A DNA stretch of 64,000 nt, taken from positions 30,477-94,476 of the IMG/VR virus record IMGVR_UViG_3300050120_000158; one strand, written 5' to 3'. Made by a program: the position numbers and the translations under genes. Of the stretch, positions 1,098 through 63,009 are shown one piece after another; positions within the stretch are counted from its first letter, which is position 1; each line of letters begins with the position of its first letter. Source of the DNA: a virus. A model generated the notes under the pieces. It saw only the letters and a program-made list of their open reading frames with translations, was not told the origin of the DNA and searched no databases.

Positions 1098-3853
1098 GCT
1101 GCTTTCCTTGCTGGTAGTCGGATAACCCGGAACGGCGGTCTGGATTTTGCAGGTTCCTGCACGGGCTTTTTCTTGGCGTCCTCGATTGCCTTAACGTGTT
1201 CGAACGTGGTGATCTTCGCGTCGCCCAAAATCTTCTTGTCGAGTTCAATCATCTTGGCCAAGTTCATGCCGATAGATACGTCCGCAATGATTGGGATTGG
1301 CGGCGTAAAGCCAAACCATTCCTTAAGCGGATTTGTTTCCATGTAGCGCTTTACTTCTCGGGCCGCTTCCATTTCACGGCCCTTACGAGCAATACAAATA
1401 ATAGCATCGTGAACGAAACCAATAACCCGAACATAGTTATGATCAAGCCCAGCATTAATCCTAGCGAGCGCAATAAGACCAAGATCGGAACCGAAGCCCT
1501 GTACTGGTGAATTGACGGCCATACGTTCTGCGGACGAAGCAACGCCATCGTCGTCCACAACAACAGCAGGCAAATGACGAACCCGACCATCGATGCACCT
1601 GACATATTTATGTATCCTTACGAATGCCTTGACGCTTTCATGCCACGACGACAAGGCGCGGTACTTGCTAAAGAACGCACCGCGAATTCTTTTACCTTCT
1701 TCCTCGGTGTAGTCGATGCCGTAATCCGTCTTGGCATAAATGACGAACTTGCGGAAACCCATGCCATATATAAAGCCGAAGTTGACGGCCTTGGCACGGT
1801 ACCGCCCCAGAGCATACTTTTCGGGGTCGTTTTGCTTGAGGGCCATAAAGGCTTCAAGGCTAATTCCCATGACGATAGCCGCCGTCATGCAGTGAATATC
1901 GCCGCCTTCCTTGTAAATCTTGAGGAAGGTCGGCTCTTTCGAGAGAATGCCAGCGATACGAAGTTCTAGCTGCGAATAGTCGGCTTCCAGTAAGACCCAT
2001 CCGTCAGGAGCTTCGAAGATAGCTCGATACTCTTTTGCGAACTCGCCGCGCTTGGGGAAGTTTTGCCCATTTGGATTATCTGACGCAGATCGTCCGGTGA
2101 CGGTTGCATGCAACTTATAAGATGGTCGGATATAACCGCCGTTGATATATTGCCAGAAGCCAGTGGCATCAACCCACTTTCCTTCGCTGTCTTGATGCCT
2201 GTCACGCCCTATGTACGTGGTAAGCATCTTCTCGTTTTTGACGTAAGCAATAAGGTCGGCAATTAGATCGCACGTCTTCTCGACGCCGTTCCAATCCTTA
2301 TACGTCCCGCGCATGTGCTTGCCGATGAAGTACGGCAGATGCGTCTTGGTTGATGTAGAGGCTAGACCGGATTTGGTCTTATGGAGCGGCTTGATCTTTA
2401 GGCCGTCTTTATGGTCGAACAGGAAATCCCGCAACAGCACTTCGCGGGTTAGTTTGAGGCCGACGCCTGTATTCTCGAATTTGTCTCGTATCGTTTTCGG
2501 GATAAGCGACATAAGCCGCTTGCGTTCAAAGTCCTGTTTCTTTTGGACCTTTACCCGAAGCGTTTCAAGCGCGATCCTGTTGACCTTGAAGCCGCGAGGC
2601 TCGATATCGCAGAACGCTCGCAAGGCCGGTAGCACTACGCGGTTATAGCAATTCAATAGCTTGGGATCGGCGGCGATCTTCGCCTTAAGGATCGTCCTTA
2701 GCTGGAATGTGCAGTCGCTATCCGCCGCGCTATAGGCAAGAATGTCTTCGGGCGGCACAAGGTCCATGCGGGCCATGTCATAGCCCTTACGCCGGAACTC
2801 GTCTTTGTAGCCCGCCATCTCAGGAAGATAGACCCGGGCGATATCGTCAAGCGCCTTGCTCAACATGTTTTCGTTAATCATGTGAACAAGCATAAGAACG
2901 TCATCCGCATAGTTTGCGATCTTGACACCTATCTTGGTAAGCAGGAAAAGGAAATCGTACTTGAGGTTCTGGCCTACTACCTCGCAATCCTTGTTCTCAA
3001 GTAATGTCTTGAGTTGTGCGATTAATTTGGTTCGCGTCCCCGGCGCTATCGGATACCCGGGGTAGTCAATTGGAACAACGTAGCTGTCGCCAGCCTTATC
3101 AGTAAGCTGTACGGTGAGTATCTTACTGTGGGGGTTGTACCAGTGGGAGAACTCTGCGGTGCCGAATGCGCTTGTCTCCGTATCGACCGCCAGAACCTTC
3201 GGCTTCCGATTGATCAGGAATTGAAGATCGGTACACCACTTATAGTTTTTGGCCGGGCCAGTTGGACCGCCGACTTTGAAATCGTTTTTGATGATCTGCA
3301 TCGCCGTTCGCATATCGGCGGTAAACAGTTCGGCATGCTCTGGCACTCGCAAGACATGACCAAGCCCAAGCATTGGCATGATAGGAACGCCTAGCGTTTC
3401 GTCCTCAATGGCAACACCGCGAAGCTTGGTGATCTTGGCCGGTCGATTGAGGACTTGCCGTATCGCCGCCTTGCCTTGCGCTATGACCAGCCTTGGCTTG
3501 AGCGCATGGAACGCTTCCATGAATTTCGGGTGATCGTTCTTGATTGCCTTGCCGAGTTTCGAGTCGCTTGTCCAAGCGTCCTTGTCGATTGGGTTGCATG
3601 CGCTGACAAAACAAACGTTATCCCCGGAAAGCCCAGCCTCTTTCATGAACGGTGCAAGCTGGGTAAGTAGCCGGTTATGCATCGGCTTGGGGTTAACGTC
3701 GAAGAACTCGCCCTCGTAAACGATTGGATCGACCACGATCATTACCGGCGCGGCGGGGTTACCCTGCCACGGCAGTTTGCAGGTTCCTGCAAGGTTTCCG
3801 CGTCCATTGAGAACGGTGCGGCGCTTCGGTAGCTGAATTACTCTAAGAGCCAT
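1094..3853 (-). CDS. polA: family A DNA polymerase with 3'-5' exonuclease and N-terminal uracil-DNA-glycosylase-like domain (SPO1-type architecture)
   Basis: Exonuclease motifs DTET, NLKYD, YSAAD; polymerase motifs DYSQLELR, RAKAVNFGFIYG, VHDA; N-terminal GNPAAPVMIV..KPRLVIAQGKAA..ITKLRG. Confidence 0.95.
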   Translation of the reverse strand: MALRVIQLPKRRTVLNGRGNLAGTCKLPWQGNPAAPVMIVVDPIVYEGEFFDVNPKPMHNRLLTQLAPFMKEAGLSGDNVCFVSACNPIDKDAWTSDSKLGKAIKNDHPKFMEAFHALKPRLVIAQGKAAIRQVLNRPAKITKLRGVAIEDETLGVPIMPMLGLGHVLRVPEHAELFTADMRTAMQIIKNDFKVGGPTGPAKNYKWCTDLQFLINRKPKVLAVDTETSAFGTAEFSHWYNPHSKILTVQLTDKAGDSYVVPIDYPGYPIAPGTRTKLIAQLKTLLENKDCEVVGQNLKYDFLFLLTKIGVKIANYADDVLMLVHMINENMLSKALDDIARVYLPEMAGYKDEFRRKGYDMARMDLVPPEDILAYSAADSDCTFQLRTILKAKIAADPKLLNCYNRVVLPALRAFCDIEPRGFKVNRIALETLRVKVQKKQDFERKRLMSLIPKTIRDKFENTGVGLKLTREVLLRDFLFDHKDGLKIKPLHKTKSGLASTSTKTHLPYFIGKHMRGTYKDWNGVEKTCDLIADLIAYVKNEKMLTTYIGRDRHQDSEGKWVDATGFWQYINGGYIRPSYKLHATVTGRSASDNPNGQNFPKRGEFAKEYRAIFEAPDGWVLLEADYSQLELRIAGILSKEPTFLKIYKEGGDIHCMTAAIVMGISLEAFMALKQNDPEKYALGRYRAKAVNFGFIYGMGFRKFVIYAKTDYGIDYTEEEGKRIRGAFFSKYRALSSWHESVKAFVRIHKYVRCIDGRVRHLPAVVVDDDGVASSAERMAVNSPVQGFGSDLGLIALARINAGLDHNYVRVIGFVHDAIICIARKGREMEAAREVKRYMETNPLKEWFGFTPPIPIIADVSIGMNLAKMIELDKKILGDAKITTFEHVKAIEDAKKKPVQEPAKSRPPFRVIRLPARKAA

Positions 3854-4460
3854 CGAATTTTATAAATTCCGTGTTGCCGCTTACATATAGAGGATGCCGG
3901 GGAAAGCCGTCTTTGGTCAAGCCCAAGCAAACTGTCTTGTCATGGTATTTGTCTACTTCGTCCAAAACCCTGTGTGCTATCGGCATCCATCGCGGGTTAA
4001 GTGCGCCGTAGGCCATGACGATTAGATCGGCCTCTTTGGCGAACGCTGCGATGGTAGCAAAATTGTTGACGCTGAAAGGCGGCACATTGTTTCGGTAACG
4101 GTCGTTAAGCAGATCGGATGGATGCGTCGCCCGATAGTCCATTAGGTTGCACTTTACCATAGAATGCTTGGCTTCACGCCAAGTGAAGCCCATCTCTCGG
4201 CGAATGGTCGGGTCGTCTACATTTCCTTCGCCGACCGATGGGTTATGACCTATCCATAGGATATAGCCTTCCCCGCGACAGGTTCTAGTACGTTTAAGAA
4301 TGTGCCGGTAGCAACCGTCATTACTGAATACCGCGTCTCCGACAATTCCCGGCTGTAACGCCCAACGCTTAGAGCCGCCCGCGTCGTGTTTTGCAGGTTC
4401 CTGCAAGCGCGGCTTGGATATGCCTTTCAGAAAGCGGGGTGGGCGGATAATCAAACCCAT
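3843..4460 (-). CDS. DUF1643 family protein
   Basis: AVFS..YRHIL..WIGHNPS..DDPTIRR..GLTKDGFPRHPLY; start inferred from the TAATG overlap at 4460. Confidence 0.85.
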   Translation of the reverse strand: MGLIIRPPRFLKGISKPRLQEPAKHDAGGSKRWALQPGIVGDAVFSNDGCYRHILKRTRTCRGEGYILWIGHNPSVGEGNVDDPTIRREMGFTWREAKHSMVKCNLMDYRATHPSDLLNDRYRNNVPPFSVNNFATIAAFAKEADLIVMAYGALNPRWMPIAHRVLDEVDKYHDKTVCLGLTKDGFPRHPLYVSGNTEFIKFDGS

Positions 4461-5024: not shown

Positions 5025-6335
5025 TCAGATCATATGGCTCATGTCTTGTTGCACGGTTTCTTCTTCCTCGTTATTCGAAGCTGCACTTACAAAGTCGAAA
5101 CATACCGGGGAGAACTCGTACTTGAATTGAAAGCGCCCACCCTCGCCTTCGCGGCCTTTCATGATGGCCGCCCAGCGTCGGATTTCAGATAGCGGAGGGA
5201 ACGCTTTTGCGACGCCCAAGACGCATGACGATGCTTGGCCGATAACATCGGTTTCCGCGATCTTGGCGAGAGACAGGTGCGAAGTAGGGTTTGTGTTCTG
5301 TTGACTGTCCCGGGTCCGCACTCGTTCCGCCGAACGGTTGAACTGTGTGCTTTGGACAAGCGGTCGGCGGCGCTCAATGGTGATCCGCTTCAAATCTTCG
5401 ATTGTATCGCTGATCGTTTCCCGGCGACCATCGGAATTCTTGCGCTTGGTGCTGGACTTAAGCAAGTACCCCGCATCAACGAAAATGATATCCGGGTCCG
5501 TTGCGTCCGCTACCGATTGGACGGTTTCTACTGATTTCTTGAAACCCCCAGCGATGACATTGAACGGAATGCCATTCTGTACCATCCCCGTTGCATGATC
5601 CTGCAACTGGTTTGCCATGAAAGACGATAGACGCCCCTTGCGGATTAGATCGGGATTGATCTTGGTGTGAATACCAAACAAACGCCGGATCAATTGGGTT
5701 ACGCCAAGTTCCATAGATACGAACAGGACGTTATACCCGGCATTCCAAGCGGCATACGCCATGATCAGCATCATGTAGGTTTTGCCAACACCAATACGCC
5801 CGATCACGGAGATAAGATCGTCCGCGAACCATCCGCCAGTAATGTCGTTTAGGTAATTCCAGCCGGTCGGGATACCGCGCAATCCAGAGGTGCGGTGCGC
5901 GTCGTCATAGTCCTGTAGAACGCTCTCTAGCCCGGCTTGCAGGGTCGCGAACTCAGACGACGCGGATACGAAGCTGGCCGACCGCTGGATAACTTCACGG
6001 GCCATGGCAACGAAAGCATCCGGGTCTTTGCGTTCGATGGCATTTCGGAATTCATTGAACGGGTCCATCAGGGCGCTATAGAGTGCGCGCTTCCTGCCTT
6101 GATCCAAGTAGAACGATAGCGGCTGAGCTACCTGCAACGTAGTTATGCCGGTCTGCCGCCTAAACATGTTGGCGTCGGGAAATGCCCGGTACTGCGTAAC
6201 ATGGTCGCGCAGATATCGGAACGCCGCTAATTCGTCGGCTTCTTCGAAGTAGCTTTCAGGAGTATCGCGGATCGCGGCGGTGCTGCCGCTTCTACGCAAG
6301 GCCGATAAAAGATTAACGCCCGTAGGTGTTGCCAT
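5025..6335 (-). CDS. dnaB: DnaB-like replicative helicase
   Basis: GIPTGW, Walker A GRIGVGKT, FVSMEL, IIFVD, QFNR, KGREG. Confidence 0.92.
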   Translation of the reverse strand: MATPTGVNLLSALRRSGSTAAIRDTPESYFEEADELAAFRYLRDHVTQYRAFPDANMFRRQTGITTLQVAQPLSFYLDQGRKRALYSALMDPFNEFRNAIERKDPDAFVAMAREVIQRSASFVSASSEFATLQAGLESVLQDYDDAHRTSGLRGIPTGWNYLNDITGGWFADDLISVIGRIGVGKTYMMLIMAYAAWNAGYNVLFVSMELGVTQLIRRLFGIHTKINPDLIRKGRLSSFMANQLQDHATGMVQNGIPFNVIAGGFKKSVETVQSVADATDPDIIFVDAGYLLKSSTKRKNSDGRRETISDTIEDLKRITIERRRPLVQSTQFNRSAERVRTRDSQQNTNPTSHLSLAKIAETDVIGQASSCVLGVAKAFPPLSEIRRWAAIMKGREGEGGRFQFKYEFSPVCFDFVSAASNNEEEETVQQDMSHMI

Positions 6336-6857: not shown

Positions 6858-7459
6858 TATTTATCGTCCCATTTTGGTAGACCAAGACTTACCCGTGCGG
6901 CATTGCTCGCAACCGGGTCGGCTTTATAGCGGTTAATTGGAATACGCTTTAACGGGGCAGGCGGGGCCGCTGGCGCTGGTTTCGGTATTGGCCGGGCCGC
7001 GATAGGGGCAGGCGCGGCAACCGTACCGTTGAGCCGCTTACCAAGCGGGAGGCTGGCTGCGATTTCCGGCTTGCTCCGCATGAAGCTTGCATGAACCTGC
7101 ACGAGGTTAGGGATGACGAACTTTAAGTCCGGCGCTTCCGGTCCTCGCGGGGTACTGAGCGAATAGCTGAAAACCTGCGTCCGAAGTTGCTGCCAGTTCG
7201 CAACAATCCAATAAAGGAAGTTGCACACGTCCTCATGGCGAAGCCCGCGCTTCGCAACCGCCTGCTTAAGGTTGTTGCCAACCCGGTCAGGGTAGCTAAT
7301 GACGCTTTCAGGATAGAACTCACGAAGGGCGTCCTCCCATGTCTTACGCCAAGCGGAATAGTTGCCCTTGGCAATGTTCTTCTTTCGAGAGGTTTGGGCT
7401 TTTTCTAAGGTAGACGCGACCACTGCGCTAAGTAACGCCTGTGTAGCTTGGTTCGGCAT
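6857..7459 (-). CDS. hypothetical replication-module protein
   Basis: Translationally coupled (TAATG) to the next gene. Confidence 0.7.
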   Translation of the reverse strand: MPNQATQALLSAVVASTLEKAQTSRKKNIAKGNYSAWRKTWEDALREFYPESVISYPDRVGNNLKQAVAKRGLRHEDVCNFLYWIVANWQQLRTQVFSYSLSTPRGPEAPDLKFVIPNLVQVHASFMRSKPEIAASLPLGKRLNGTVAAPAPIAARPIPKPAPAAPPAPLKRIPINRYKADPVASNAARVSLGLPKWDDK

Positions 7460-8145: not shown

Positions 8146-8263
8146 TAGTACGATTTACGCGGCGCTGTCGCAATCGCGATGTACTTGGTTTTGCTGCCAT
8201 ATTCGGGGTCTTGACATAGAGCAAATCGCGCTTGCAGGTTCCTGCACCCGCATCGCACATTCT

Positions 8264-10088: not shown

Positions 10089-10136
10089 TGTATGGAAAAT
10101 CTTGCAGGAACCTGCAAGGCGACTAGGGGAATTGTA

Positions 10137-12136: not shown

Positions 12137-12189
12137 GTAAGGAGTTAAAAGGACTAAACCCCGCGCCAGCGTTTGCAGGTTCCTGCAAG

Positions 12190-14436: not shown

Positions 14437-14477
14437 AGTATTATTCCCTTGTGAGTTGTTTGCAGGTTCCTGCAAGT

Positions 14478-16299: not shown

Positions 16300-17109
16300 C
16301 TAGCGCGGAATGGTTATCTTGCGCCTTGGGCGGTAAGACGCTTGCTCCGGTTTAGCCTGTTTATCCTGCTTGGGTCCATCCCAGTGGGTGCCGCCTGTCC
16401 ACAGCTCGTTTGCAGGTTCCTGCAACGGTCTCACGACTAGCGTTACCTCAAACGATCCGCTGGGCATCTCTTGGATACTCTGGACCAGAACCGGGAGACC
16501 GTTATAAACGATAGTTGCCCCTATCTGATAGGAAACCAACTCAAATTCCTGCGCTAGGTGTAAGAACGTCGCCCCTTCTGGGTAGGGTGGTGGGGGCTGC
16601 TCACGAACACAAACTATATTGAATACACCGGTAGCTTGCTGCACGCAAGCAGACACAAACCACTGCTCCCCTACTCCGTCGCGCTCTATAGTAACAGCAT
16701 CCCCAATCCTCATTGACTGCGTAGCGTGGAAATCAAGTCGTTCCGTTATAGGAACAGTAAACGATGAATAGGTATACTGGGGTTCGGGGATCAGGCCCCC
16801 AAGGAGTGCCGCCGAAAGTCTATCAGCAGCCTCGCGCATCGCGCTATCTAGCCCCGGCGAATGTATCTCGGCAATTTCTTCGATAGTCCTCGTCTCATGG
16901 TCGATCCGGCGCACCGACATAGTTACCGGAACTATCTCGCAGGGAGCATCAAGGTAGCGCCGATACTCCGCTAGGGATGTTTCGTCTAGCTCCTGTCCGG
17001 GTAACGTCCGCGTAACCATGTCACGAAATGCATCAACCGGATGGGTGACGCTCCAATCCTCCCACGGGATAAATCGAGGGTTATTATCGCTTTCATCCTC
17101 TGGCGGCAT
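16300..17109 (-). CDS. hypothetical protein
   Basis: ORF track. Confidence 0.7.
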   Translation of the reverse strand: MPPEDESDNNPRFIPWEDWSVTHPVDAFRDMVTRTLPGQELDETSLAEYRRYLDAPCEIVPVTMSVRRIDHETRTIEEIAEIHSPGLDSAMREAADRLSAALLGGLIPEPQYTYSSFTVPITERLDFHATQSMRIGDAVTIERDGVGEQWFVSACVQQATGVFNIVCVREQPPPPYPEGATFLHLAQEFELVSYQIGATIVYNGLPVLVQSIQEMPSGSFEVTLVVRPLQEPANELWTGGTHWDGPKQDKQAKPEQASYRPRRKITIPR

Positions 17110-17826: not shown

Positions 17827-18032
17827 GGTGCAGGTTCCTGCAAATTAAAATTAAAGAGGGCCGCGCCAGCGCGATTGCTTGTGGGGTCAATCGGCGGCGC
17901 GGCCCTTATCCCGGAGCGGCTATCAGGTGCAACGACCCGGAGCGGATCAAGACGACCGTTCGGAATTGCGGGGCGTTGGTTCCCCGCATTTGGCAAATAT
18001 AAAGCGAGGCTCTTGTTATTGCAAGTGCGAAA

Positions 18033-19645: not shown

Positions 19646-19727
19646 GTTCGGTATTCCTTGGTTGAAGCTCTAGGACAGTCCTTTGAACAACAACCAAGGT
19701 TACACGAATTTGCAGGAACCTGCAATG

Positions 19728-22206: not shown

Positions 22207-22293
22207 TAGTATTCTCCCGGTTTGCAGGAACCTGCAACTGATGGCGTATACTAACGGTTGTGGCGGCTCCGAACAATCATTGTAGATTTTTAG

Positions 22294-47593: not shown

Positions 47594-49545
47594 CTTGCAG
47601 GAACCTGCATGTCCATATGGTGGCGAAGCTCTTGCGACAACGAGCGCATTTCCTTTCGTACCATATTTTGCAAAATATGGCTCTGCAAGGCTTTGGTAAC
47701 CGCCGTGTTCTTTGACTTGCTCTTGGCTTTTTTCTTGTTCTTGCCCCCGGGCTGATTGGTCTTGCCCGGCTTCCCTCTGTTCTGCGGGCTGGCCGGGTCG
47801 GCAGGGTCCGGCTTTCCAGCGGTGGCAACGTCAAGTGCGTTTTGCTGCGCTTCTGCGGCTTTCTCGGCCTCCGCTTCCATATCCACGATGAATTCGGTAA
47901 GACCATCGACCTGATTGCCAGCAATGACATACTGCATAACCGCAGCCCAAGGATAATCGCCCCAAGCTTCGGTGACCGGCTTGATATCAATATCCAAAAT
48001 CTTGTTCGCGATCTTGATAACAGCGTTCGGAGTGAGCGCCCCCGTGCTATCAAGCGTGGTAAGCATGGTGGCCAAGCTATCCGGGTCGGCAAGCGGCACA
48101 CCAACTGACTTGAAGCGCCAATACCTCGGACGGTAGGTCCGCAGTATCTTGTTGTTCATAAGATCGTCAAAGCTCTGCCGCTCGGGTCCGAAAATCTGCT
48201 GTTCGGCGGTGACAACCGACGCGAAGGCGCTGGCCCGAGTATAGTCTTCGGCGCGACCGGCATAGATTGGGGGCAGTCGGAACGAAGAACGGATTTTCTG
48301 CTGGTTGGCCTGATCGTAATCCTTGAACAGGCCGTCCTGCTGCCGCTCCGATATCATCGGCTTCATATCGATACGCGGTGCCGATACCGAATGGTCCGTC
48401 GAGCCAGAAGTGTCGTCACCGCTTGCCTCAAGAACCAGAATTCGGTTCATAGCCGCCGTGCCCTTGAGGGCATTGATGTAGGCATCGATGACTTCAAAGC
48501 TCTCTTGGGTGAGCGCGCCGCCCGAAATCAGAACGGCCATTGCCGGGATGGCATTCTCTCGGAAGAAATTGAGGTTCACCATTTCGGACTCTCTTGAGCC
48601 GAGAATGGACGGCAACTGGCCTATCCAGCGGGGCAAACCGTAAATCTGCCCCGGCGTGTACAGCGAAAGCATCAGGCATTCAGTCGCCTGATCCTCGATG
48701 GGGAGCGCCGGGTTTTCTTCGCCGGTCTTAGGATCGATTGATCGCGGGTCTCCGAACTCCTTGAAATACGTCTTGTGGTAAATGTGGTTCGTATAGCTGA
48801 TCTGCACATAGCGACAGAAGTGCTGGAAGGCGGTCTTGACGATCATCTGCGACGGGTCGGCAGGATTGGGTACCTGTAAGATAACCTCTGTTTGTTCCAC
48901 TTCGCGGATTGTCCGGCGCATGGTCGTACCGGGCAAGTGATCGAACATGATGATGCGACCGGCCAAGTCCCGCGAAATCTCGAAGAACCGGTTTCCAATC
49001 GTTTCGAAATCCCATCGGGTACGTTCCCGGATTTCTTTCAATGAAGCATCTGGGGAACACAACGAGAGGAAGTTCTCAAGCATGACCTTCTCTGCTTGAA
49101 CGTCCGGGGCTTTCTCGCTCCCTTCTTCCCCTATGTATTCGAGCATGTGGCCGTAGCTCTCGATATTGACCACATAGGCTTCGATGCACTGGCGCAGTGT
49201 ATTGGAGTTTTGCACCAACCGGGCAAGGTGATTGAATTGATAGCTCGGCACGATGGGGCCGAAACCGGCTATAACGTCGCCGCTGGCTGCGTTGGAATAG
49301 GAAAACGGGTCGGGGGCTGCGTTGGATTTGAGCGGCGTTTTGGAGGCCCGCTTTTTGGCGGGTTCCGGTGTGACAGTTTCGCTGACGGGCGCACCGCTGG
49401 CTTGACTGAGCAAACCGTCGAAACCGGAAGTGTGATACTTCGCTTCGGTCTGAATAAAGCGGACGTTACGCGCGGCTCGCTGTTGTCGCGGTTCCACCTT
49501 GGCAACCGGAAGCGTGATCCGCCTAGACAATGGTTTGATTGACAT
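47590..49545 (-). CDS. portal protein
   Basis: DFETIGN, YGLPRW, N.NFF.ENAIP, FRLPPI; between terminase and protease. Confidence 0.88.
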   Translation of the reverse strand: MSIKPLSRRITLPVAKVEPRQQRAARNVRFIQTEAKYHTSGFDGLLSQASGAPVSETVTPEPAKKRASKTPLKSNAAPDPFSYSNAASGDVIAGFGPIVPSYQFNHLARLVQNSNTLRQCIEAYVVNIESYGHMLEYIGEEGSEKAPDVQAEKVMLENFLSLCSPDASLKEIRERTRWDFETIGNRFFEISRDLAGRIIMFDHLPGTTMRRTIREVEQTEVILQVPNPADPSQMIVKTAFQHFCRYVQISYTNHIYHKTYFKEFGDPRSIDPKTGEENPALPIEDQATECLMLSLYTPGQIYGLPRWIGQLPSILGSRESEMVNLNFFRENAIPAMAVLISGGALTQESFEVIDAYINALKGTAAMNRILVLEASGDDTSGSTDHSVSAPRIDMKPMISERQQDGLFKDYDQANQQKIRSSFRLPPIYAGRAEDYTRASAFASVVTAEQQIFGPERQSFDDLMNNKILRTYRPRYWRFKSVGVPLADPDSLATMLTTLDSTGALTPNAVIKIANKILDIDIKPVTEAWGDYPWAAVMQYVIAGNQVDGLTEFIVDMEAEAEKAAEAQQNALDVATAGKPDPADPASPQNRGKPGKTNQPGGKNKKKAKSKSKNTAVTKALQSHILQNMVRKEMRSLSQELRHHMDMQVPAR

Positions 49546-49606: not shown

Positions 49607-49984
49607 TTATTTTCGGTTGAGCGGGTTGTTCCCCATCCGAAAGCTCCATAATGCGCAATCGACAACCTCGCACATACGAGCGCCCTTGGCTCCGCTCGCA
49701 CATAGAACGCAAAACGCGCGGATTGCCGAACCTTTACTACGGATGCGATTACGATACGAATGGTCAAGATCGGTATCGTTGTCCGCGTCTCGGACCATAA
49801 GGGTAAGGTCATCTACCGGAGCCTGCATCGGGTTCGTGCCGCTGTAGGTCAAGTGCCCAGCAGTTCGCAAGGTATTGGCGGTTCCCCCGGTAAGAACAGC
49901 ATCCTTGCTAGGAACGTGCGGGGCCGCGACTCTTGCAGGTTCCTGCACGGACCCGACGACAAAATTGCGCTGCTTAATCGCCAT
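49607..49984 (-). CDS. Cys-motif hypothetical protein, paralog of 50401-50931
   Basis: AIRAFCVLC..C....CALWSFRMGNNP. Confidence 0.7.
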   Translation of the reverse strand: MAIKQRNFVVGSVQEPARVAAPHVPSKDAVLTGGTANTLRTAGHLTYSGTNPMQAPVDDLTLMVRDADNDTDLDHSYRNRIRSKGSAIRAFCVLCASGAKGARMCEVVDCALWSFRMGNNPLNRK

Positions 49985-52050: not shown

Positions 52051-54183
52051 TTAGCTGCGTTGAACGCTGCGCCTAAACACGGACTTTCTAATCGAGACGT
52101 GCCTAGTAATTGCTACCTTGGCCTTGGACGCTTCGGCATTCACGCCGGTTGCAGGTTCCTGCACGGGCTTGCCAACGTTAACCTTGCCCATGATCGGGCT
52201 CCAAGCAACGCGGCGCTTAAGCAGGAACGAGGTAACGCCGCAGACAGCATCCGCAACGTCCTTGGTGCCGTTCGATCGATGGTCAACCTTGTCTGGTGCC
52301 GTCCCCTGCCCTCTGACGTACTCAAGGCCAGCTAGTTCGTTCGCAAGCCATTGGTGATTGGGTAAATACACGGCGGCATCGTACAAAGAGTCACGAAGCG
52401 AGCGGTACGGATCAATCTTCTCGACGCTAAGGTAGTCGGCCTTGAAGTTCTTGGTCCGCAGAATTTGACGGCTATCTACTGATTGGAAGCCGTCAAACGT
52501 GACATACTCAATCGGCAAATTGTATTGATCGCGCATCATGATAAGGAATTCGCGAACATGCGCGAACTCGATTTCACCGCCCGGTGGCGGAACTACGCGC
52601 ATGATAACGTCAAACCCAACGATTGGTTTCAGTTCACTAATGCGCAACTTGGTTACCGGATCGTATCGCTCAATTAGCTTCTGCCCGGCGATATGGCCGA
52701 TTGCAATTCCGCAAGCATCCCGCTTATGGCCAAGATCGATATGGGCCATTCTAAACATCGGAATATTCGTAAGCAGTCGATCCCGGTGCGGCTTGGGTAT
52801 CCCAAGCGAAAAGTCGTATTCTTCCCGGTCGAACGGATTGATGTACCCATGCTCCGTTCCGTCACGCATACAATCATGTATCGCGGAACGTCGACTAATG
52901 AACGGACGCGATGCGAGGATGGTGACGCCAGCGAAGTCGCGCAGTGATCCGTCTGTGTCTTTTTCGAAGTCGCCCTTGAAGTCCATCGGCACGTCGATGA
53001 CTTGGCAGTCGGCAATTGGTTCCTCACCTTCCGCCAAGATGCGGGATCGCACCATGTTATTGCCGACCATGACGCGGAATGTTTCGTCTAGGAACTGTTC
53101 GCGGCCCTTAACTTCCCATATCGCTTTCGACATGACGAAGATGTTGGGGTCCGTGCCGCCCGCCATGGTTGACTCCATGGCCTTAAGCTCAGTGAAGTCG
53201 TCTGGGAAGCGTGACGATGAAATCAGAAACAAAATGCCGGGCAGTTTGCCACGGTTGGCGAACCGCGACCGGCGACGGCGGCTGATAGCTTCATAGATCG
53301 ACTTAGCTTGGCTGTAAGAGCCGTCGAGTTGGGCGTTCTGCGATTTGGACTTAAGAACCTTCTGCATGAAGTTCATTTCGTCCAGCACGCCGCCCATGAC
53401 GTTCATGGATATTGCACCCGTAGACGACGACGAGACCGGGAGGACAGAGAGCTTCTGTTCATCAAAACGCATCTCGGTAGTAATGAACTTGTTGTAAGGG
53501 TAAATATGCTTGAAATACGGACTGTTCTTAATGTTTCCTCCGAAGTCATCGAAGACCGCTTTCTTTGCAGTAGCGAGCCTAATAGACTGGATTGTAAATA
53601 CGATGGTGGACCCGGCACGAATGCCATAGGTCGTTTGTGGGTGCCGCATGCATGAGGTCTTATAGATGCTCCGCGCAAGCATAATATTAGACAAAGTAGT
53701 TTTACCATAACCAAGCGCTCCCTTTAGAACCGCCTCGACATATATATCCTTGTCGAGTTCAAGCATAGCCTCCAAGACGCCGGGGAAGATATCCTCCCTC
53801 TTGATGCCAAGGTAAGCTTGCCCGAATATGAATTCCTCAAGCGGAACCACTTTCCGGCGAAGCTCGGTAAGGGATACGAGTGCATCTATATCGCCCGTAT
53901 CGCGGAACGTCTCAACGCCATCAAGCCAAAGATCGCGGGTTTCGCCATCATCCTGTTGATTAGCTTCCTCAATGATCTGGTCGAGAATAAGCTGGGTCCG
54001 CTCGTCTAACCCGTATTGCGTGTCTGCCGGGCTGACTTTAGGTGCAGGAACCTGCAAGTTAATATGGCGGCGAATGTGCAGAACCGGCGCTGCAATCTTC
54101 TGCAACACCGGCTTGGTAACTATAAGTCTTGGCTGCGGCAGTATCTTGAAGCCGCTCTGCCTAACGACAGTGATCGTTTGCAT
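52051..54183 (-). CDS. terL: terminase large subunit
   Basis: GALGYGKT, GVLDE, ISS; nuclease motifs HIDLG, TFDGFQS, KDVADA. Confidence 0.9.
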   Translation of the reverse strand: MQTITVVRQSGFKILPQPRLIVTKPVLQKIAAPVLHIRRHINLQVPAPKVSPADTQYGLDERTQLILDQIIEEANQQDDGETRDLWLDGVETFRDTGDIDALVSLTELRRKVVPLEEFIFGQAYLGIKREDIFPGVLEAMLELDKDIYVEAVLKGALGYGKTTLSNIMLARSIYKTSCMRHPQTTYGIRAGSTIVFTIQSIRLATAKKAVFDDFGGNIKNSPYFKHIYPYNKFITTEMRFDEQKLSVLPVSSSSTGAISMNVMGGVLDEMNFMQKVLKSKSQNAQLDGSYSQAKSIYEAISRRRRSRFANRGKLPGILFLISSSRFPDDFTELKAMESTMAGGTDPNIFVMSKAIWEVKGREQFLDETFRVMVGNNMVRSRILAEGEEPIADCQVIDVPMDFKGDFEKDTDGSLRDFAGVTILASRPFISRRSAIHDCMRDGTEHGYINPFDREEYDFSLGIPKPHRDRLLTNIPMFRMAHIDLGHKRDACGIAIGHIAGQKLIERYDPVTKLRISELKPIVGFDVIMRVVPPPGGEIEFAHVREFLIMMRDQYNLPIEYVTFDGFQSVDSRQILRTKNFKADYLSVEKIDPYRSLRDSLYDAAVYLPNHQWLANELAGLEYVRGQGTAPDKVDHRSNGTKDVADAVCGVTSFLLKRRVAWSPIMGKVNVGKPVQEPATGVNAEASKAKVAITRHVSIRKSVFRRSVQRS

Positions 54184-54794
54184 TAGCCCTTAACTTCCAA
54201 AACCTGCTTCACAAGGTTGTGCATGCGGTCCCGGCTTGTCTGATCCTTCTTGACCCGGCCAAGGTCTTCGACAACGGTAGCATCCTCAGGGGCCGAACCT
54301 CTGGGGCCATCTGTGATGCGGCCTTCCATCTTGGCAATCGTTTCGACAAGCTTGGTGGTCGAGTCAAATGCTTTGGTGTTGCTATCGAGAAGCAGATTGA
54401 AATCTTTCTCGTTCTTGATCGCGATACCAAGACGAAGCTGCTGTACCTTAAGCAATTGCTTGGCGGCTCGCAACGTATCGACATAGGGCTGGCTGGGGTT
54501 GGCGTGTTCGTCCAGCCCTTCCGTTGGGGCAGCTTCAATAAGCTCCGGGTGCTTGGTACGGTAAGCCCTGATCGCCTCTGCAAACGTCCGCTCGTTGACC
54601 GTGATCCAACCTTGGGAGGCCCAGTGAGAGGCCAATTGCGTGGGTCCGATGCCGCTTTTAAGCGACGCCAGCAAAAGTTTGTACTGGGGGTTGTTTGCGA
54701 CCAGATTGATAAGATAACGCGCCTGCACTTCCTTTTGCGGAGTGACACCTTTGGCATTGATGAAGCGCGGTTGTGGGCGGCGGATAGCAATCAT
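54183..54794 (-). CDS. putative terminase small subunit
   Basis: Coupled directly upstream of terL; helical. Confidence 0.55.
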   Translation of the reverse strand: MIAIRRPQPRFINAKGVTPQKEVQARYLINLVANNPQYKLLLASLKSGIGPTQLASHWASQGWITVNERTFAEAIRAYRTKHPELIEAAPTEGLDEHANPSQPYVDTLRAAKQLLKVQQLRLGIAIKNEKDFNLLLDSNTKAFDSTTKLVETIAKMEGRITDGPRGSAPEDATVVEDLGRVKKDQTSRDRMHNLVKQVLEVKG

Positions 54795-55651
54795 TTCTTA
54801 AGCCTGAGGGTTTTTCGGGTCTCGACCTTATCCGACTTTTTGATTTTGCTCAAGTCGGGGTTAGCCAGAAGCGCCTTGAAAACGTCTGATAACATAAGAC
54901 CCTTGCTGCGAATTTCGTCCTCAAGCTTTTCCAGCAAGCCGTTAAGCTGCTTATCGGACTCGACATAGTGGTGGTTCTTGCCGCCGAAGTTGAATACGAC
55001 AAAGCCATGGTCAAGGTCCGAACCCTTGTCCTTGAAGATGTTGTTGAGGACCGACGACAGGCCGTCGATGCTCGAAATCTTTTCCTTGGCCTCGGCGAGC
55101 TTTTTCTTCTGCGCCGGATTGAGGTTCTGTTCGACGGCTTTGTATAGCTTCTTGAACACGTCCTCTTTGGTAATGCCCATTTGAAGCTTCAAGATCGAGG
55201 CATCGTACTTCTTGGACATTTCGTTCCACAGTTGCGTGAACTTCTGCGGATTGGTATTGCCGCGAAGATGGTTCTCGCGAATGAGCGCTATCTTTCGCTC
55301 GTCTTCGGACCATCCCTCCTTAATGACGCAAGGGACCGCCGTATACTTGAGAACTTTCGCGACCTTGAAGCGGTGGTGACCAGAGTAGATAATGTACTTG
55401 CCGGGCTTCCCATGCGCGGGAACGACTTTGATTGGTTCGTCAAAGCCGTTATCTTTGATAATTTGGACAAGCTGATCGAAGGTGGCTTCGTCTTGCTCAT
55501 TGGGGTTTTCCTTGGACTCTATCAAGTCCTCTATAGGAATGTCGAACACGTCCAGCATGGTGCTTTTCTTGAGCGCGACCGGCTTAACGAGCGTAACTTT
55601 CGCGGCCGTTGTCGGGCGCTCGGCAGAGAGCTTCTTAATTGCGAGCGCCAT
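54791..55651 (-). CDS. ParB/Srx-like protein
   Basis: IPIEDL..ENPNE..L...I..NGF.EPI.V..IYSGHHR..EN.LRG. Confidence 0.85.
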   Translation of the reverse strand: MALAIKKLSAERPTTAAKVTLVKPVALKKSTMLDVFDIPIEDLIESKENPNEQDEATFDQLVQIIKDNGFDEPIKVVPAHGKPGKYIIYSGHHRFKVAKVLKYTAVPCVIKEGWSEDERKIALIRENHLRGNTNPQKFTQLWNEMSKKYDASILKLQMGITKEDVFKKLYKAVEQNLNPAQKKKLAEAKEKISSIDGLSSVLNNIFKDKGSDLDHGFVVFNFGGKNHHYVESDKQLNGLLEKLEDEIRSKGLMLSDVFKALLANPDLSKIKKSDKVETRKTLRLKK

Positions 55652-55652
55652 A

Positions 55653-56150
55653 TTACTTGACCTTCTTTAAGAGTTTGGGCTTTGCAGGAACCTGCAAATT
55701 GTTGTGTTCTTCGACGTGATGTTCTCTGCAAAACCACTCTACTTCTAATGGCTTCGTATAATCTGGATGGTGGGCTTCCGCCGATGCTCCGCACACTTTA
55801 CAAGGTTCTTTCTTTAGTAGGCCACCTTTAAGGGCGTGGTATACAATCTGTCGAGCGGCATACTTAAGCGGGTTATTTATTCTTGATTTCTTAGCCTTCC
55901 GCGCTCTACTTGCCCGATACCCCGCCGTTTCAGTATACCGCTCCCACGTTTCCTTGCCTTTTGGGGTTTTGCGATATCTTTGAGTTTTTTCTACTCCTTT
56001 CCGCTTGCCTTGTTCCGTCTGCGTATACTCACTTATTTTTAGTGTTTGACATTTTTTGCAATATGGTTGGAGGCCGCTTGGCGAGCGGCTTGACCGGTAA
56101 AACTCGGTCGGAAGCTTTAACTGATTGCAGCACGGGCAGAGTTTCTTCAT
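55653..56150 (-). CDS. HNH endonuclease with N-terminal Zn finger
   Basis: CPCC..YCKKC; C..CG..AEAHH.DY.KPLEV.W.CREHH. Confidence 0.8.
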   Translation of the reverse strand: MKKLCPCCNQLKLPTEFYRSSRSPSGLQPYCKKCQTLKISEYTQTEQGKRKGVEKTQRYRKTPKGKETWERYTETAGYRASRARKAKKSRINNPLKYAARQIVYHALKGGLLKKEPCKVCGASAEAHHPDYTKPLEVEWFCREHHVEEHNNLQVPAKPKLLKKVK

Positions 56151-57741
56151 CTAGTGATATATCCCCGTCAAATTCGGTTATATCACTTATGTTAATCGGT
56201 GGAATAACTTTAGGCAAGTAGTCCCTGTCAAAAATATCCCTTCTTATGAACACGTCATCCGGCCCCTCACACGTATCTACGTAGTTGGCTAAAGCCATCG
56301 TGTGATGAATAGCAGAACGAGCGTATGTAAACGTGGTTCTTATTTTCATATCGCCAATGCTGATCCCAAGGTTGCCACACTTATTGAGGTAAGCAACGAT
56401 ATCAGCAAAAGTGTATCTTGTTCCTTTAAGCTCTTGGCAGAACTTGATGACGGCCCCGGAAGTCTTGAAGCGGTTGAGGTGCGCGCGGGCCTGCAACTCG
56501 ATTTCATCGGCGAGTTTGGCGATGTTATCTTTAGCATTGTATTTCTCCCGGATCGTGTTCCGCCACGGCAGTATCATGTCCCGGGCTTCTTGTTTATTTT
56601 CACGTATCCAGTTCAGAGTAGCTAGTAAAGCGGCCTTGTCCTTCGGTTCGATAACAAACGGATAGTCAGCAAAGAAGGATTGTTGATAATCTGATACCGG
56701 CATAATTCCCGGCAACCCCATGTAAAGAGCCTCAAACAGTCCGGTAGGATGATCAAGGTGAGACATAGGGCAAATAAAGGCATGGTAGCCCCGCAATTGT
56801 CGGATGAAGTTCGCCCGGTTGTTGTTCTCAAGAATGCGGAACTGGCGACCTACGTTGGCGAAGTCGAAGCCTATGCCAGCAAGCTTGCTGCGCATCGGGC
56901 CGCCTAGAGCGCCGGAAAGGGAAACGGTAAGGGTAACATCATCGATACCGGATTTGAACAAGTAGTCGAACCACGGCAGATACTCGATATACGAGACACC
57001 GAAAATACGACCGATGCTTACGACATTGAAGCCGGTCTCAGCCTTCCAGCGGTCAGGATCATAAATCTGGTCGAGTTGATCGCATTCGATACCAGCCGGG
57101 ATAACCTTGGCCTGTTCGCTCGCAAATTTCTTCACGCGGCTTGTAACGAATATCTCTGCCATTTCTTTGGTAACTTCGGAACGATTGTGGTCCGAGAGAA
57201 AGACGGTGCTATCAGATGCGAGATACCCAAGGCACTGCATGAGCCAATATGTCTCGCCTGAGTTCTGTCTTTGTTTCGTCTGAGGGAATTCTTCGATGAG
57301 TACGACAGGGAGACCGTATCCCTTGTCTGTGTAATTACCGCCGTTATCGTGAAACCTTGGGGGTTCCAACAAACGTTTGTAATATGCGGCGAGAGAGTTC
57401 CGAGACGTGCATAGTACGTCAACGTGATACTTACCGGCCACACGGTTAAAGAGATTGAAGAATTCGTCTGTAACCAATCCATCAACGACGAATTGATCCT
57501 GAATAGGAGAGGTACGGATGATCCCGACATTAGGATGCCCCTCAATCTCATCAGGGGTGTATTTAGCTTCATCTGGCACCATCCAAAAAACATAGTGGCC
57601 TCTTTTGACCAACTCCCTAACCAACGTAACGTATTTCCTATATGTACTCGACCCAGATAAGTTAGAAATCTGAACGTAGACTGGATCGATAAGGATACGT
57701 AGTCTAGGGCGATACACCTCAGGCACGTCGAGAACTCCCAT
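56029..57741 (-). CDS. GT-B (family 4-like) glycosyltransferase
   Basis: ELVKRGHYV, FLSDHN, VIPAGI, SIGR, GLFEALYMGLP. Confidence 0.75.
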   Translation of the reverse strand: MGVLDVPEVYRPRLRILIDPVYVQISNLSGSSTYRKYVTLVRELVKRGHYVFWMVPDEAKYTPDEIEGHPNVGIIRTSPIQDQFVVDGLVTDEFFNLFNRVAGKYHVDVLCTSRNSLAAYYKRLLEPPRFHDNGGNYTDKGYGLPVVLIEEFPQTKQRQNSGETYWLMQCLGYLASDSTVFLSDHNRSEVTKEMAEIFVTSRVKKFASEQAKVIPAGIECDQLDQIYDPDRWKAETGFNVVSIGRIFGVSYIEYLPWFDYLFKSGIDDVTLTVSLSGALGGPMRSKLAGIGFDFANVGRQFRILENNNRANFIRQLRGYHAFICPMSHLDHPTGLFEALYMGLPGIMPVSDYQQSFFADYPFVIEPKDKAALLATLNWIRENKQEARDMILPWRNTIREKYNAKDNIAKLADEIELQARAHLNRFKTSGAVIKFCQELKGTRYTFADIVAYLNKCGNLGISIGDMKIRTTFTYARSAIHHTMALANYVDTCEGPDDVFIRRDIFDRDYLPKVIPPINISDITEFDGDISLDEETLPVLQSVKASDRVLPVKPLAKRPPTILQKMSNTKNK

Positions 57742-58228: not shown

Positions 58229-58603
58229 TTAGATCATGGGATACAAGACGACTTTTTTTTGCAGGAACATGCAACGCGACATGATCGGGACCATGGCCGC
58301 GAAAGTTCCGTCCCAAAACATGACAACGCCGTCCGCGTCGGCGATCATAGCTATGTTTCGGTTGTCGAATGCTTGGGCGGTGGTGATCGAAACACCGGAC
58401 TCGCCTTGGTAGTTCGGAGGGGTACGCACAATCTCAATGCTGCTATCGCGGGCATATTCTTCCGCTAGGGCTTCTATGCCCCTACCACCGCCTGAGATAA
58501 GCACGTCAAGGTCGGGTATGGCCCCGAGACAACCCGCGACATGCGTTTTGTTATCGTAGACCTTAAACCGATATTCGCGAGGCCCGAAAACAGCATAGCG
58601 CAT
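58229..58603 (-). CDS. SLOG-family (DUF2493/YspA-like) protein
   Basis: GPR, ISGGGRGIEALA, RNIAM, FWDG. Confidence 0.7.
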   Translation of the reverse strand: MRYAVFGPREYRFKVYDNKTHVAGCLGAIPDLDVLISGGGRGIEALAEEYARDSSIEIVRTPPNYQGESGVSITTAQAFDNRNIAMIADADGVVMFWDGTFAAMVPIMSRCMFLQKKVVLYPMI

Positions 58604-58681
58604 TCACCCAGCCCTTGTAAGGGATGCTTCTTATGTCCCTTATAGCCGAGATTTGCAGGTTCCTGCAATCGTTGTAGATTT

Positions 58682-59224
58682 TTAGTCTTTGTTTGGTTCA
58701 ACGTCGATGATCGGACCTTCGGAAAAGTCCGAGGCGCTGTCTCTGAACTTCGGGTCAAAGATTTGCCGGGTCTTGAACGTTTCGGTAGACCGAGGAACCG
58801 CCGCGTAGTGCGTCACAGTATGGACCGGATGCGTCCCCGGCGCTGCTCTAGCGCCCGGCGCTTCGTTGGTCACCCTTGAAACAGCGGAGTACTCGCCGAA
58901 GTCGTTGACAAAAATCGTTGTGACGATTTCAACGCGATCCCGGGCAAAGCTTGTCTCGTTCTCTAGGACCGCCCGGTAAGGGTTAATAACCCGGTTACCC
59001 TTCTGCATCGGAACTTGGATGACAAGCCCCTCGGCTTTGAGACGCTGGATCGCCGCGTTGATGCTTTGGCGGTTGCCCTTGAGGACGCTATGGACTTGGG
59101 CGATGGTTTGGTCCGGGTTCATCTTGAGGTGGCGATACACGTCGCCGGTAAGTGACCCTGTTTTCAGGAGCGGATGTCGGCCTCGACCGCGACGGCGGTT
59201 CTCAAGATGGGTCGGCTCTGACAT
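58682..59224 (-). CDS. winged-HTH DNA-binding protein
   Basis: TIAQV...L...RQSINAAIQRLKAEGLV. Confidence 0.65.
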   Translation of the reverse strand: MSEPTHLENRRRGRGRHPLLKTGSLTGDVYRHLKMNPDQTIAQVHSVLKGNRQSINAAIQRLKAEGLVIQVPMQKGNRVINPYRAVLENETSFARDRVEIVTTIFVNDFGEYSAVSRVTNEAPGARAAPGTHPVHTVTHYAAVPRSTETFKTRQIFDPKFRDSASDFSEGPIIDVEPNKD

Positions 59225-59441: not shown

Positions 59442-59456
59442 TGCAGGTTCCTGCAA

Positions 59457-61206: not shown

Positions 61207-61704
61207 TTATTTTGTTTTTCGCTTTGCAGGTTCCTGCAAGTGTTTATCTGGCTTGCCGCGATGCTGCCAAACACCTTTGACGCGCACGCGGGTATAGAAA
61301 TGATGTGACCGGGCGGCTTTCTTATTCTTGATTTGTTTGAAGCCGCCCGTTGTCTCTGGAAAGAGCGCCGGGATTGCGACGCCTTCATCGAACTCAGCCC
61401 AATCCTGCGCTATTATCTGCGTCGGTGACAGGTCGGCTTTCGCCGAAGCCATCAACGGCAAGCCGCTCAGCAACATACCTGCCATTGCCGCGCGAAATGA
61501 TTTGGAGACGCCTAGCGACGTGGTGGGGGTACATTGTGTTCGTGATATCACGAGCCGACAAGAGCGCGAGCAAGAAAGCAATTTCTTCGTCGCGGTCCCG
61601 GTTGAAGTTGCGAAAATGAGCAAGGTGCCTCTCAAGCTCTGCCACACGGGCAAGTGCCCCGCGCTGTTCGGTAGTCGCTGGCTGGGTGAATGCACCATGT
61701 TCAT
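61207..61704 (-). CDS. hypothetical coding region; frame ambiguous with 61394-61780
   Basis: Two overlapping minus-strand ORFs. Confidence 0.35.
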   Translation of the reverse strand: MNMVHSPSQRLPNSAGHLPVWQSLRGTLLIFATSTGTATKKLLSCSRSCRLVISRTQCTPTTSLGVSKSFRAAMAGMLLSGLPLMASAKADLSPTQIIAQDWAEFDEGVAIPALFPETTGGFKQIKNKKAARSHHFYTRVRVKGVWQHRGKPDKHLQEPAKRKTK

Positions 61705-62560: not shown

Positions 62561-62902
62561 CTAACCCCTTTTCTTCGTTTTGGTGGTAACGCTCTTGGAA
62601 GTTCCTTTGAACATCGCCTTGATATCCTTGAGTGTATCGGAAACCTCAAACACAACGGTCGGGGTATACACGCGCCGCTTATTCTCCCCTTCCTTGCCCC
62701 TACCGTAGGCGACGATAACGTCCCGCCTAATGTGGAACGAGTATTCCGGGTTAGTCCCTTCGATGAACTCAAGGAATTCATGATCCTCTGGCATAACTAT
62801 CCCCCATATTAGATGCTGATAACAAAATCGATGAAGCCCGCGAACGCGATACCCATTATAAATGTAGCAGCGGTAGCGTCCCTGCCGGGAGTGATCCAAC
62901 AA
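62561..62902 (-). CDS. hypothetical protein (probable start MPEDHEF)
   Basis: ORF chain. Confidence 0.5.
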   Translation of the reverse strand: MLDHSRQGRYRCYIYNGYRVRGLHRFCYQHLIWGIVMPEDHEFLEFIEGTNPEYSFHIRRDVIVAYGRGKEGENKRRVYTPTVVFEVSDTLKDIKAMFKGTSKSVTTKTKKRG

Positions 62903-63009
62903 AAGAAGCTAAGCAGTGCTGCAAAGGCGATAAAAAGCATCGCGTTTTTGATTGCTAGCTTAAGCATGGGTTGCAGGTTCCTGCATGGGTGATAGCCGAT
63001 TATTTGCAT
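62809..63009 (-). CDS. small membrane protein (probable start MLKLAIK)
   Basis: Two hydrophobic segments. Confidence 0.45.
   Translation of the reverse strand: MQIIGYHPCRNLQPMLKLAIKNAMLFIAFAALLSFFCWITPGRDATAATFIMGIAFAGFIDFVISI

Follow-up and report, generated by a model that had tools for sequence, protein, structure and literature searches.

Why would a phage repeat one short palindrome along its whole chromosome at nearly regular intervals? The question arises from a window of 64,000 nt, bases 30477-94476 of the 94,476-bp virus record IMGVR_UViG_3300050120_000158 (estimated completeness 95%). The element is a 14-bp duplex, TGCAGGTTCCTGCA, in which a 6-bp inverted repeat flanks an AA/TT centre; because this centre is not palindromic, the element can lie in two orientations. 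We counted 29 exact copies in the window and 42 in the whole record, and the evenly spaced array that they form is real, statistically strong, conserved and under selection.

An exact word in many copies

In shuffled sequence, 0.11 matches with up to one mismatch were expected, against 32 found in the window (29 exact and 3 with one mismatch). The centre reads AA in 17 of the 42 genome copies and TT in the other 25. The flanking bases are also restricted, to T (35) or G (7) on the 5' side and to A (28), C (12) or T (2) on the 3' side, so that the majority of copies are 16-bp palindromes. A megablast of 20 kb against GenBank phages returned no near-identical match, and a 16-mer scan of bacterial genomes for a host-wide repeat gave single hits only, among the matches listed.

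The flanks have a further peculiarity. C never precedes and G never follows the motif at any of the 42 sites, and the same holds in relatives L031-L033, so that no CTGCAG (PstI-type) site is formed at any of the 142 arms of the TGCAG-type arrays. In the relative RcDurkin, C is frequent at the same flank position (14/43), where no PstI-type site would result. Restriction avoidance as the source of the asymmetric AA/TT centre was ruled out, since relative L031 uses GGTACC.

Spacing compared with null models

The first-pass annotation, made from the letters alone, had listed 29 palindromes in the window, and its positions and 28 gaps were all reproduced exactly. The median that it put at about 2.0 kb is 1978 bp, and the 21 of 28 gaps that it placed within 1.4-3.0 kb are indeed there, with 7.8 expected (P<5e-5). 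The smallest gap is 614 bp, where ~76 bp would be expected. Over the whole genome the 41 gaps have a coefficient of variation (CV) of 0.527, a median of 2071 bp and a minimum of 614 bp, and 29 of them fall within 1.4-3.0 kb against 11.4 expected. We compared the observed CV with five null models, none of which attained it in 5,000 trials (0/5,000, P <= 2e-4 for each):

Uniform placement: CV 0.98 +/- 0.14
All sites at random gene junctions: CV 1.03 +/- 0.16
Junction and coding sites randomised separately: CV 0.98 +/- 0.15
Junction sites fixed, coding sites random: CV 0.95 +/- 0.17
Coding sites fixed, junction sites random: CV 1.07 +/- 0.21

The annotation had named a random choice among gene boundaries as the process that, by reproducing the spacing, would undo its interpretation; as the second model shows, such a choice does not reproduce it. 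The junction and stratified models likewise reject gene length as the cause of the evenness. In the genome, 90% of the sequence lies within 1.5 kb of a site, compared with 74 +/- 4% under the null. The two largest gaps span the tail genes to which they had been attributed:

27450..31592, minus strand: GpJ-like tail tip protein (Pfam FNIII-A_GpJ, Phage-tail_3), in the largest gap (6047 bp)
34742..39415, minus strand: tape measure protein (Pfam PhageMin_Tail), in the second largest gap (5531 bp)

The near-matches previously noticed at 7088, 5592 and about 38339 were all recovered, the last at 38338. With a further one at 58260 they make four near-sites, where 0.35 are expected, and three of the four fall within long gaps. 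The sites and near-sites of the window are as follows, with the centre as read on the plus strand:

1148..1161: TT, within the DNA polymerase gene, 54 nt ahead of the stop
3778..3791: TT, within the DNA polymerase gene, 62 nt past the start
4392..4405: TT, at the called start of a 187-amino acid (aa) open reading frame (ORF)
5592..5605: near-site with 2 mismatches (TGCATGATCCTGCA), within the DnaB-like helicase gene
7088..7101: near-site with 1 mismatch (TGCATGAACCTGCA)
8233..8246: TT, between two divergent genes, that of a 191-aa winged-helix-like protein and that of the integrase
10103..10116: AA, intergenic
12174..12187: TT, 2 nt past the stop of the DUF2997 gene
14461..14474: TT, 3 nt past the stop of the AAA ATPase gene
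16411..16424: TT, within a 269-aa ORF, 111 nt ahead of the stop
17829..17842: TT, intergenic, start codon 2 nt downstream
19711..19724: AA, intergenic, 3 nt past a stop
22223..22236: AA, intergenic, 16 nt upstream of a start, immediately ahead of the ribosome-binding site
23670..23683: TT, occupying a 35-nt junction, with a stop 6 nt before and a start 15 nt after
26337..26350: TT, intergenic, start 5 nt downstream
32384..32397: TT, in the final codons of a 263-aa tail gene (6 nt ahead of the stop), next start 2 nt downstream
34724..34737: AA, 4 nt past the tape-measure stop
38338..38351: near-site with 2 mismatches, one half intact, within the tape-measure gene
40255..40268: AA, intergenic, 2 nt past a stop
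42262..42275: TT, within a 67-aa ORF
43791..43804: AA, within a 209-aa head-tail gene
46095..46108: AA, within a 416-aa gene upstream of the capsid gene, 360 nt ahead of the stop (in JP1, a site ~350 nt ahead of the orthologous stop)
47596..47609: AA, in the final codons of the portal gene, protease start 2 nt on (RcDurkin and JP1 have sites at the same junction)
49934..49947: TT, close to the start of a 125-aa ORF
52150..52163: TT, within the large terminase gene, 99 nt ahead of the stop
54043..54056: AA, within the large terminase gene, 127 nt past the start
55683..55696: AA, 31 nt upstream of the ParB-like gene
58260..58273: near-site with 1 mismatch (TGCAGGAACATGCA)
58654..58667: TT, intergenic
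59442..59455: TT, intergenic, adjoining a start codon
60550..60563: TT, intergenic
61225..61238: TT, close to the end of an 81-aa ORF
62972..62985: TT, intergenic, start 4 nt downstream

Nearly all genes lie on the minus strand. About 20 of the 42 sites are intergenic, typically 2-6 nt past a stop codon and directly upstream of the next ribosome-binding site, and ~16 sites are found up to 35 nt upstream of a start codon. Called genes contain 22 sites, 15 of them within 15% of a protein end. The palindromes had been described as evenly spaced rather than clustered at promoters; the first half of that description holds, but the sites are not indifferent to genes. Those in coding sequence also favour one frame: 18 of the 22 read L/V-Q-E/V-P-A (LQEPA/LQVPA), 4 read AG(T/S)CK and none uses the third frame, and the relatives follow the same one-frame rule (L-Q-x-x-A). 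The coding sites look like a DNA word forced into the least harmful spots where no junction is available.

Related phages carry arrays with other centres

The DNA polymerase has matches in the Rhodobacter RcF phages, Agrobacterium JP1, the Rhizobium L338C-like phages, Aeromonas HJ05 and Pseudomonas SM1, and TGCA-N6-TGCA arrays are present in all of these polymerase relatives and in IMG/VR relatives. The arms are common while the centres differ: we found 24-48 TGCA-N6-TGCA palindromes in phages of Rhodobacter, Agrobacterium, Rhizobium, Pseudomonas, Stenotrophomonas and Vibrio, and as a control the reversed pattern gave 0-6 matches per genome. The array is thus a clade-wide trait, in phages of 80-110 kb, and takes these forms:

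RcDurkin: T(G/A)CAATCGATTGCA, 43 copies; gap CV 0.65-0.74, P ~0.001-0.05
JP1: TTGCAAA(CG/CA)TTTGCAA, 33 copies; gap CV 0.56, P<=0.003
HJ05: TGCAAC(CG/TG)GTTGCA, 16 copies
L338C, RHph_I4 and P11VFA: TGCAACnnGTTGCA, centre free, 45-48 copies; gap CV 0.61, P<=0.003 (L338C) and 0.77, P ~0.001-0.05 (RHph_I4)
SM1: TGCAA(A/G)CG(C/T)TTGCA, 28 copies; gap CV 0.54, P<=0.003
DLP_5: TGCAAT(CA/TG)ATTGCA, 35 copies; gap CV 0.49, P<=0.003
VH2_2019: TGCA(A/G)TTAA(T/C)TGCA, 34 copies; gap CV 0.41, P<=0.003
RcZahn: TGCAATCAACTGCA-like, 24 copies; gap CV 0.68, P ~0.001-0.05

Uncultured relatives add the forms TGCAGGTACCTGCA and TGCAGACGGCTGCA. The mean spacing ranges from ~1.4 kb to 4.9 kb, and therefore the evenness is general and "2 kb" is no constant. 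The central CpG variants show a strand bias (CA 9 against TG 0 in JP1, TG 8 against CA 1 in HJ05), which could reflect deamination or codon constraints. Separately, an unrelated 45-kb viral contig, L049, has six GCGAACG-N-CGTTCGC palindromes within 11 kb (1782-10887) around a distant ParB-like gene (24% identity).

Two of these phages are close enough to be aligned. L338C and RHph_I4 share 79% identity across 76% of their length, and of the 38 sites that can be aligned both have retained 37 intact, while the flanks and the two central bases of the sites are only ~50-75% identical; the array is under purifying selection. Between distant relatives, a site lies within 40 nt of the same point relative to the orthologous stop in only 1-2 of 17-29 comparisons, for which reason inherited positions were rejected as the cause of the even spacing. 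Some neighbourhoods are reused among relatives (the ends of the portal and RuvC genes, both ends of the polymerase gene and the terminase). From the rarity of positional matches and this reuse it follows that spacing is kept, that exact positions drift and that the word itself changes. We had been directed to ask whether relatives keep the spacing at different positions, and this is what they do, with different motifs. Mobile palindromes of the REP/REPIN type do not account for the array: half of the sites are in frame within genes, their flanks are unrelated and the orthologous proteins have no indels there; a RAYT transposase was not searched for.

These results support selection on site density, which the first-pass annotation had proposed "rather than" regulation of particular genes. 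The density part is borne out by the null models, by the even spacing of relatives and by the sites within genes. Its exclusion of regulation is not shown, because sites favour gene boundaries and their density roughly doubles, from 0.42 to 0.79 per kb, in the small-gene region at the right end of the window.

The element acts as double-stranded DNA

Sequence conservation stops at +/-2 nt from the motif, and -10 boxes are not found at any fixed distance from it, the -10 scores being the same as at random positions in five genomes. A sigma-70 promoter or a fixed-distance activator site was rejected on these grounds. Orientation is free in this phage (25:17) and for the asymmetric form of SM1 (11:10). 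As RNA, the form of this phage folds at -7 kcal/mol (z = -3) and those of RcDurkin and JP1 at only -3.8 to -4.8 kcal/mol, while the commonest coding-strand form of the RcDurkin type, with a TACA arm, has zero folding energy. Intrinsic terminators were rejected because the 6-bp stems have 0 to -7 kcal/mol and the flanks contain no U-tract or T-run. Taken together, the missing fixed -10 element and U-tract, the free orientation and the unfolded RcDurkin form lead us to conclude that the element works as double-stranded DNA, read with two-fold symmetry.

A ParB-like protein as candidate reader

Which protein might read the sites? The leading candidate is encoded next to the terminase genes, within this set:

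52051..54183, minus strand: large terminase, 710 aa, orthologue of annotated terminases
54183..54794, minus strand: gene for a 203-aa product, flanked by the ParB-like and terminase genes and resembling a small terminase in its position alone; likewise placed in RcDurkin, JP1, DLP_5, VH2_2019 and RcZahn
54791..55651, minus strand: ParB/Noc/KorB-like protein, 286 aa, leading candidate reader (Pfam ParB_N, PDB sequence matches, structural model)
56029..57582, minus strand: glycosyltransferase orthologue, 517 aa (E 1e-209 to JP1_004, 2e-181 to RcDurkin gp21)
58682..59224, minus strand: winged-helix protein, 180 aa, weakly MarR/TrmB-like, alternative reader; orthologues in JP1 and RcDurkin

The 286-aa protein gives the sole ParB_N match in the genome (34.1 bits against a cut-off of 26.3) and matches ParB, Noc, KorB and Spo0J chains in the PDB by sequence. 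A model of moderate quality (predicted local distance difference test score, pLDDT, 71) matches Noc 7nfu, KorB 8qa9 and ParB 7bnk over 180-190 columns, covering the N-terminal and DNA-binding domains, so that its closest solved folds appear to be Noc, KorB and ParB. In the model a helix-turn-helix domain directly follows the N-terminal domain, the matched structures being C-terminally truncated Noc, KorB and ParB, and the alignment with H. pylori ParB extends to residue 164. Box III (ENxLRG..NP) is retained. Every array genome examined has a ParB_N protein, and the block of glycosyltransferase, small gene, ParB-like gene, 203-aa gene and large terminase is conserved in JP1, RcF, DLP_5 and VH2_2019, with its ParB-like, small gene and terminase part in RcZahn. 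The 203-aa product has no family match. ParB-like orthologues (L031-L047) have a short basic N-terminal peptide (MALAIKKL, MPIRKK, MAVKKR) and a lysine/arginine-rich tail. Variation in the recognition helix tracks the motif groups no more than shared ancestry would give, and could not be used to name the reader.

The explanation we favour, tentatively and as somewhat short of probable, is that the palindromes are docking sites for a phage dimer, likeliest this ParB/Noc/KorB-like protein, under density selection. We infer each of its parts, namely that a protein binds, which protein it is, that it spreads and what the coverage is for. The palindromes would be predicted high-affinity sites on double-stranded DNA for a phage-encoded protein with two-fold symmetry, each half of which would read one arm, TGCA plus two bases. 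Selection would maintain a perfect site about every 2 kb, so that nearly the whole chromosome would lie within 1-1.5 kb of one. The 286-aa protein would load at each site and then spread or slide a limited distance, and the array would thereby allow coverage of the entire phage chromosome. The purpose of such coverage could be to mark the DNA, to organise it or to silence it, whether for packaging or while the phage persists as an episome or prophage. From its operator, KorB can slide as far as 1.5 kb (PMC11790492), a range that by analogy fits the spacing of the phage sites, and a clamp of the KorB type would be a density device and a regulator simultaneously. Two of the relatives, DLP5 and DLP3, have a temperate lifestyle, the former having been isolated in phagemid form and the latter being a suggested phagemid (PMC7326821). 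A wider picture, possible though doubtful, is that in a large group of siphoviruses of 80-110 kb the chromosome is tiled with sites at which a ParB-type protein loads without a ParA, at a spacing tuned to its sliding range, that coating of the whole genome marks, compacts or silences the virus's own DNA in a virus-specific way, and that motif and reader co-evolve over ~40 sites at once.

Several observations weigh against a sliding ParB-like reader. The cytidine triphosphate (CTP) signature GERRxRA (box II) is replaced by SGHHRFKVA in 11/11 aligned orthologues, and box I, NPxQPR, by ENPNEQ; because the CTP signature is altered, the clamp chemistry is not established. In HJ05 and SM1 we found only diverged ParB_N proteins, and the 16 sites of HJ05 are not significantly even (CV 0.79). 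Arthrobacter phage KellEzio has a close ParB-like orthologue (41% identity, E 6e-45) adjoining a glycosyltransferase and no palindrome array. In the RcDurkin-type phages (RcDurkin, IMG/VR G002 and G003) the arm that transcription meets first is usually TACA, which is not expected of a purely symmetric reader. Other readers are possible, namely the 180-aa and 191-aa winged-helix proteins and a 173-aa helix-turn-helix protein whose family occurs in this phage, RcDurkin, HJ05, L338C, RHph_I4 and SM1, and weakly in JP1, DLP_5 and VH2_2019; it has no solved relative and few homologues.

As a separate observation, the TACA arm, whose TACAAT is similar to a -10 box, makes an otherwise symmetric site asymmetric and oriented. 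Further candidates for the reader were discarded, a 113-aa core protein that is not found in VH2_2019, DLP_5 or RcZahn, and the DUF1257 and DUF2997 proteins, which are not known DNA binders.

Alternative explanations

Could the sites serve another protein as roadblocks? We consider it unlikely, if still credible, that a different dimeric helix-turn-helix protein of the phage, such as the 173-aa protein (which adjoins the helicase) or the 180-aa MarR-like one, acts on them as a roadblock or repressor across the whole genome, much as at the stoperators of Cluster A mycobacteriophages. Stoperators, read by the L5 gp71 repressor, also occur at about one short, near-identical site per 2 kb and change in sequence between related phages, but they are asymmetric 13-mers, oriented with transcription and found only in short intergenic gaps, whereas the sites here are palindromic, in both orientations, and more than half of them (22/42) lie within called genes. 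The breadth of the 173-aa family, present in most relatives, the weak MarR/TrmB matches of the 180-aa protein, the twofold density in the small-gene region, the integrase of this phage together with the temperate DLP3 and DLP5, and the ParB-like gene of KellEzio without an array would all agree with such a repressor. However, RcZahn gave no match to the 173-aa family, the 180-aa protein was detected in JP1 and RcDurkin alone, the Samunavirus and Vibrio relatives are described as lytic, and a roadblock alone requires neither even spacing nor sites within long genes.

It is improbable that the palindromes are substrates of a DNA enzyme, that is, points of nicking, cleavage, priming or recombination start, possibly as extruded hairpins, for T4-like recombination and replication or for packaging. 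The phage does encode RecA-like, Cas4-like, RuvC-like, helicase, primase and gp32-like proteins, the ParB_N fold occurs in nucleases too, and the scarcity of near-copies in the window (4, beside 29 perfect copies) fits the all-or-none site of an enzyme. Yet the nick sites known from phages are asymmetric and specific to one strand, unlike these palindromes; the RcF relatives are reported to have a single P1-type headful end and not many (PMC8601537). Six-base-pair stems are, besides, weak.

We see only a slim chance that the palindromes are targets of sequence-specific DNA modification by a glycosyltransferase / SLOG / ParB-like module, as a mark of self or a block to translocating host nucleases. 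ParB-like proteins do have roles in DNA modification (DndB, DpdB), this phage, JP1, RcF, DLP_5, VH2_2019 and KellEzio all have the glycosyltransferase and ParB-like genes together, and in a comparison of this phage, JP1 and RcDurkin the glycosyltransferase ranks first in conservation. But L338C, RHph_I4, HJ05 and SM1 have arrays and no detectable orthologue of the 517-aa glycosyltransferase, and KellEzio has the module and no array. Among this phage, JP1 and RcDurkin that protein is conserved about as strongly as the far longer polymerase.

Least credible of all is a short RNA hairpin for processing, stability or translational control in long one-directional transcripts, which the ~16 sites just upstream of start codons and the folding energy of this phage's form would suit, but half of the sites are within genes, some deep, both loop versions are used regardless of strand, stems do not co-vary within a genome, the TACA form is unfolded and the folds of other relatives are weaker, and no U-tract follows.

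Other genes of the phage

The genome has these further features:

8437-9888, plus strand: tyrosine integrase (PHROG 1, weak Pfam Phage_integrase), one of five plus-strand genes called
12190-16217, minus strand: trio of AAA ATPase (579 aa), DUF1257 (147 aa) and DUF2997 (65 aa) genes, conserved in most relatives
57719-58189, minus strand: HNH endonuclease gene (Pfam HNH_3), between a SLOG-like gene and the glycosyltransferase
61701-62258, minus strand: 185-aa ORF with homologues in L338C, RHph_I4 and RcZahn

Searches of ten relatives found no counterpart of the integrase; given its presence, this phage may integrate, unlike its phagemid relative DLP5. The HNH gene is probably a homing insertion, since JP1 and RcDurkin have nothing at that place. 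Homologues of the 185-aa ORF match the ParB-like profile in RcZahn (E 3e-5) and only at E 0.01-0.03 in the Rhizobium phages, with nothing in Pfam; judged by these matches, the ORF may be a second, diverged ParB-like protein.

Comparison with known systems

Among published cases, the nearest is the 17-bp dyad repeat found in Cluster O mycobacteriophages such as Corndog, TGTTCGG-N3-CCGAACA, which has >30 copies, invariant arms and unknown function, an AAA/TTT centre in both orientations and positions between genes, near starts and within genes; the motif is not in the host and a dimeric protein is suspected (PMC4351075). A ParB-like gene is annotated in Cluster O (PMC6439249). The present array resembles it in having 42 copies, invariant arms and an AA/TT centre both ways, and differs in that its motif and phage lineage are unrelated. 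The 34 sites of Corndog are not evenly spaced, with a CV of 1.07 (null 0.97), and are crowded into the right arm. A regular density of sites could mark DNA as self, as with Chi, which is 5-8 nt long, asymmetric, orientation-dependent and set by the host enzyme; the phage word, in contrast, is a 14-16 bp palindrome particular to the phage lineage.

Among plasmid and chromosomal systems, KorB and its 12 OB operators on the IncP plasmid RK2 (also Noc/NBS and ParB/parS) share with the phage a palindrome of 13-16 bp, many dispersed copies per replicon and a ParB-fold reader, in the phage a candidate one. The phage differs in having 42 sites rather than 12, evenly tiled along a virus genome and also in coding DNA, and its protein has GHHR in place of GERR. 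The ParA/IncC partner was not found, nor was a KorA-like partner identified. For partition of the ParABS type a Walker ATPase would be needed, and the search for a ParA-type ATPase (AAA_31) gave no match in the 95%-complete genome, while the control search was positive in 14/14 genomes. In the literature we found no description of even spacing and the motif strings in no paper; the published RcF, DLP3 and V-YDF132 papers do not mention the palindromes.

Even tiling by one exact word, kept in essential genes and across seven host genera, points to a chromosome-wide process and not to ordinary control of single genes. The system is testable, as there are cultured members on tractable hosts (Vibrio natriegens, Rhodobacter capsulatus, Agrobacterium and Pseudomonas), and the concerted change of ~40 sites plus their reader makes a clean case for the evolution of DNA-binding specificity. 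If the reader is the ParB-like protein, one could read off from the site spacing, in a natural setting, how far a DNA clamp works, and the common "ParB-like nuclease" genes that adjoin phage terminases would acquire a function.

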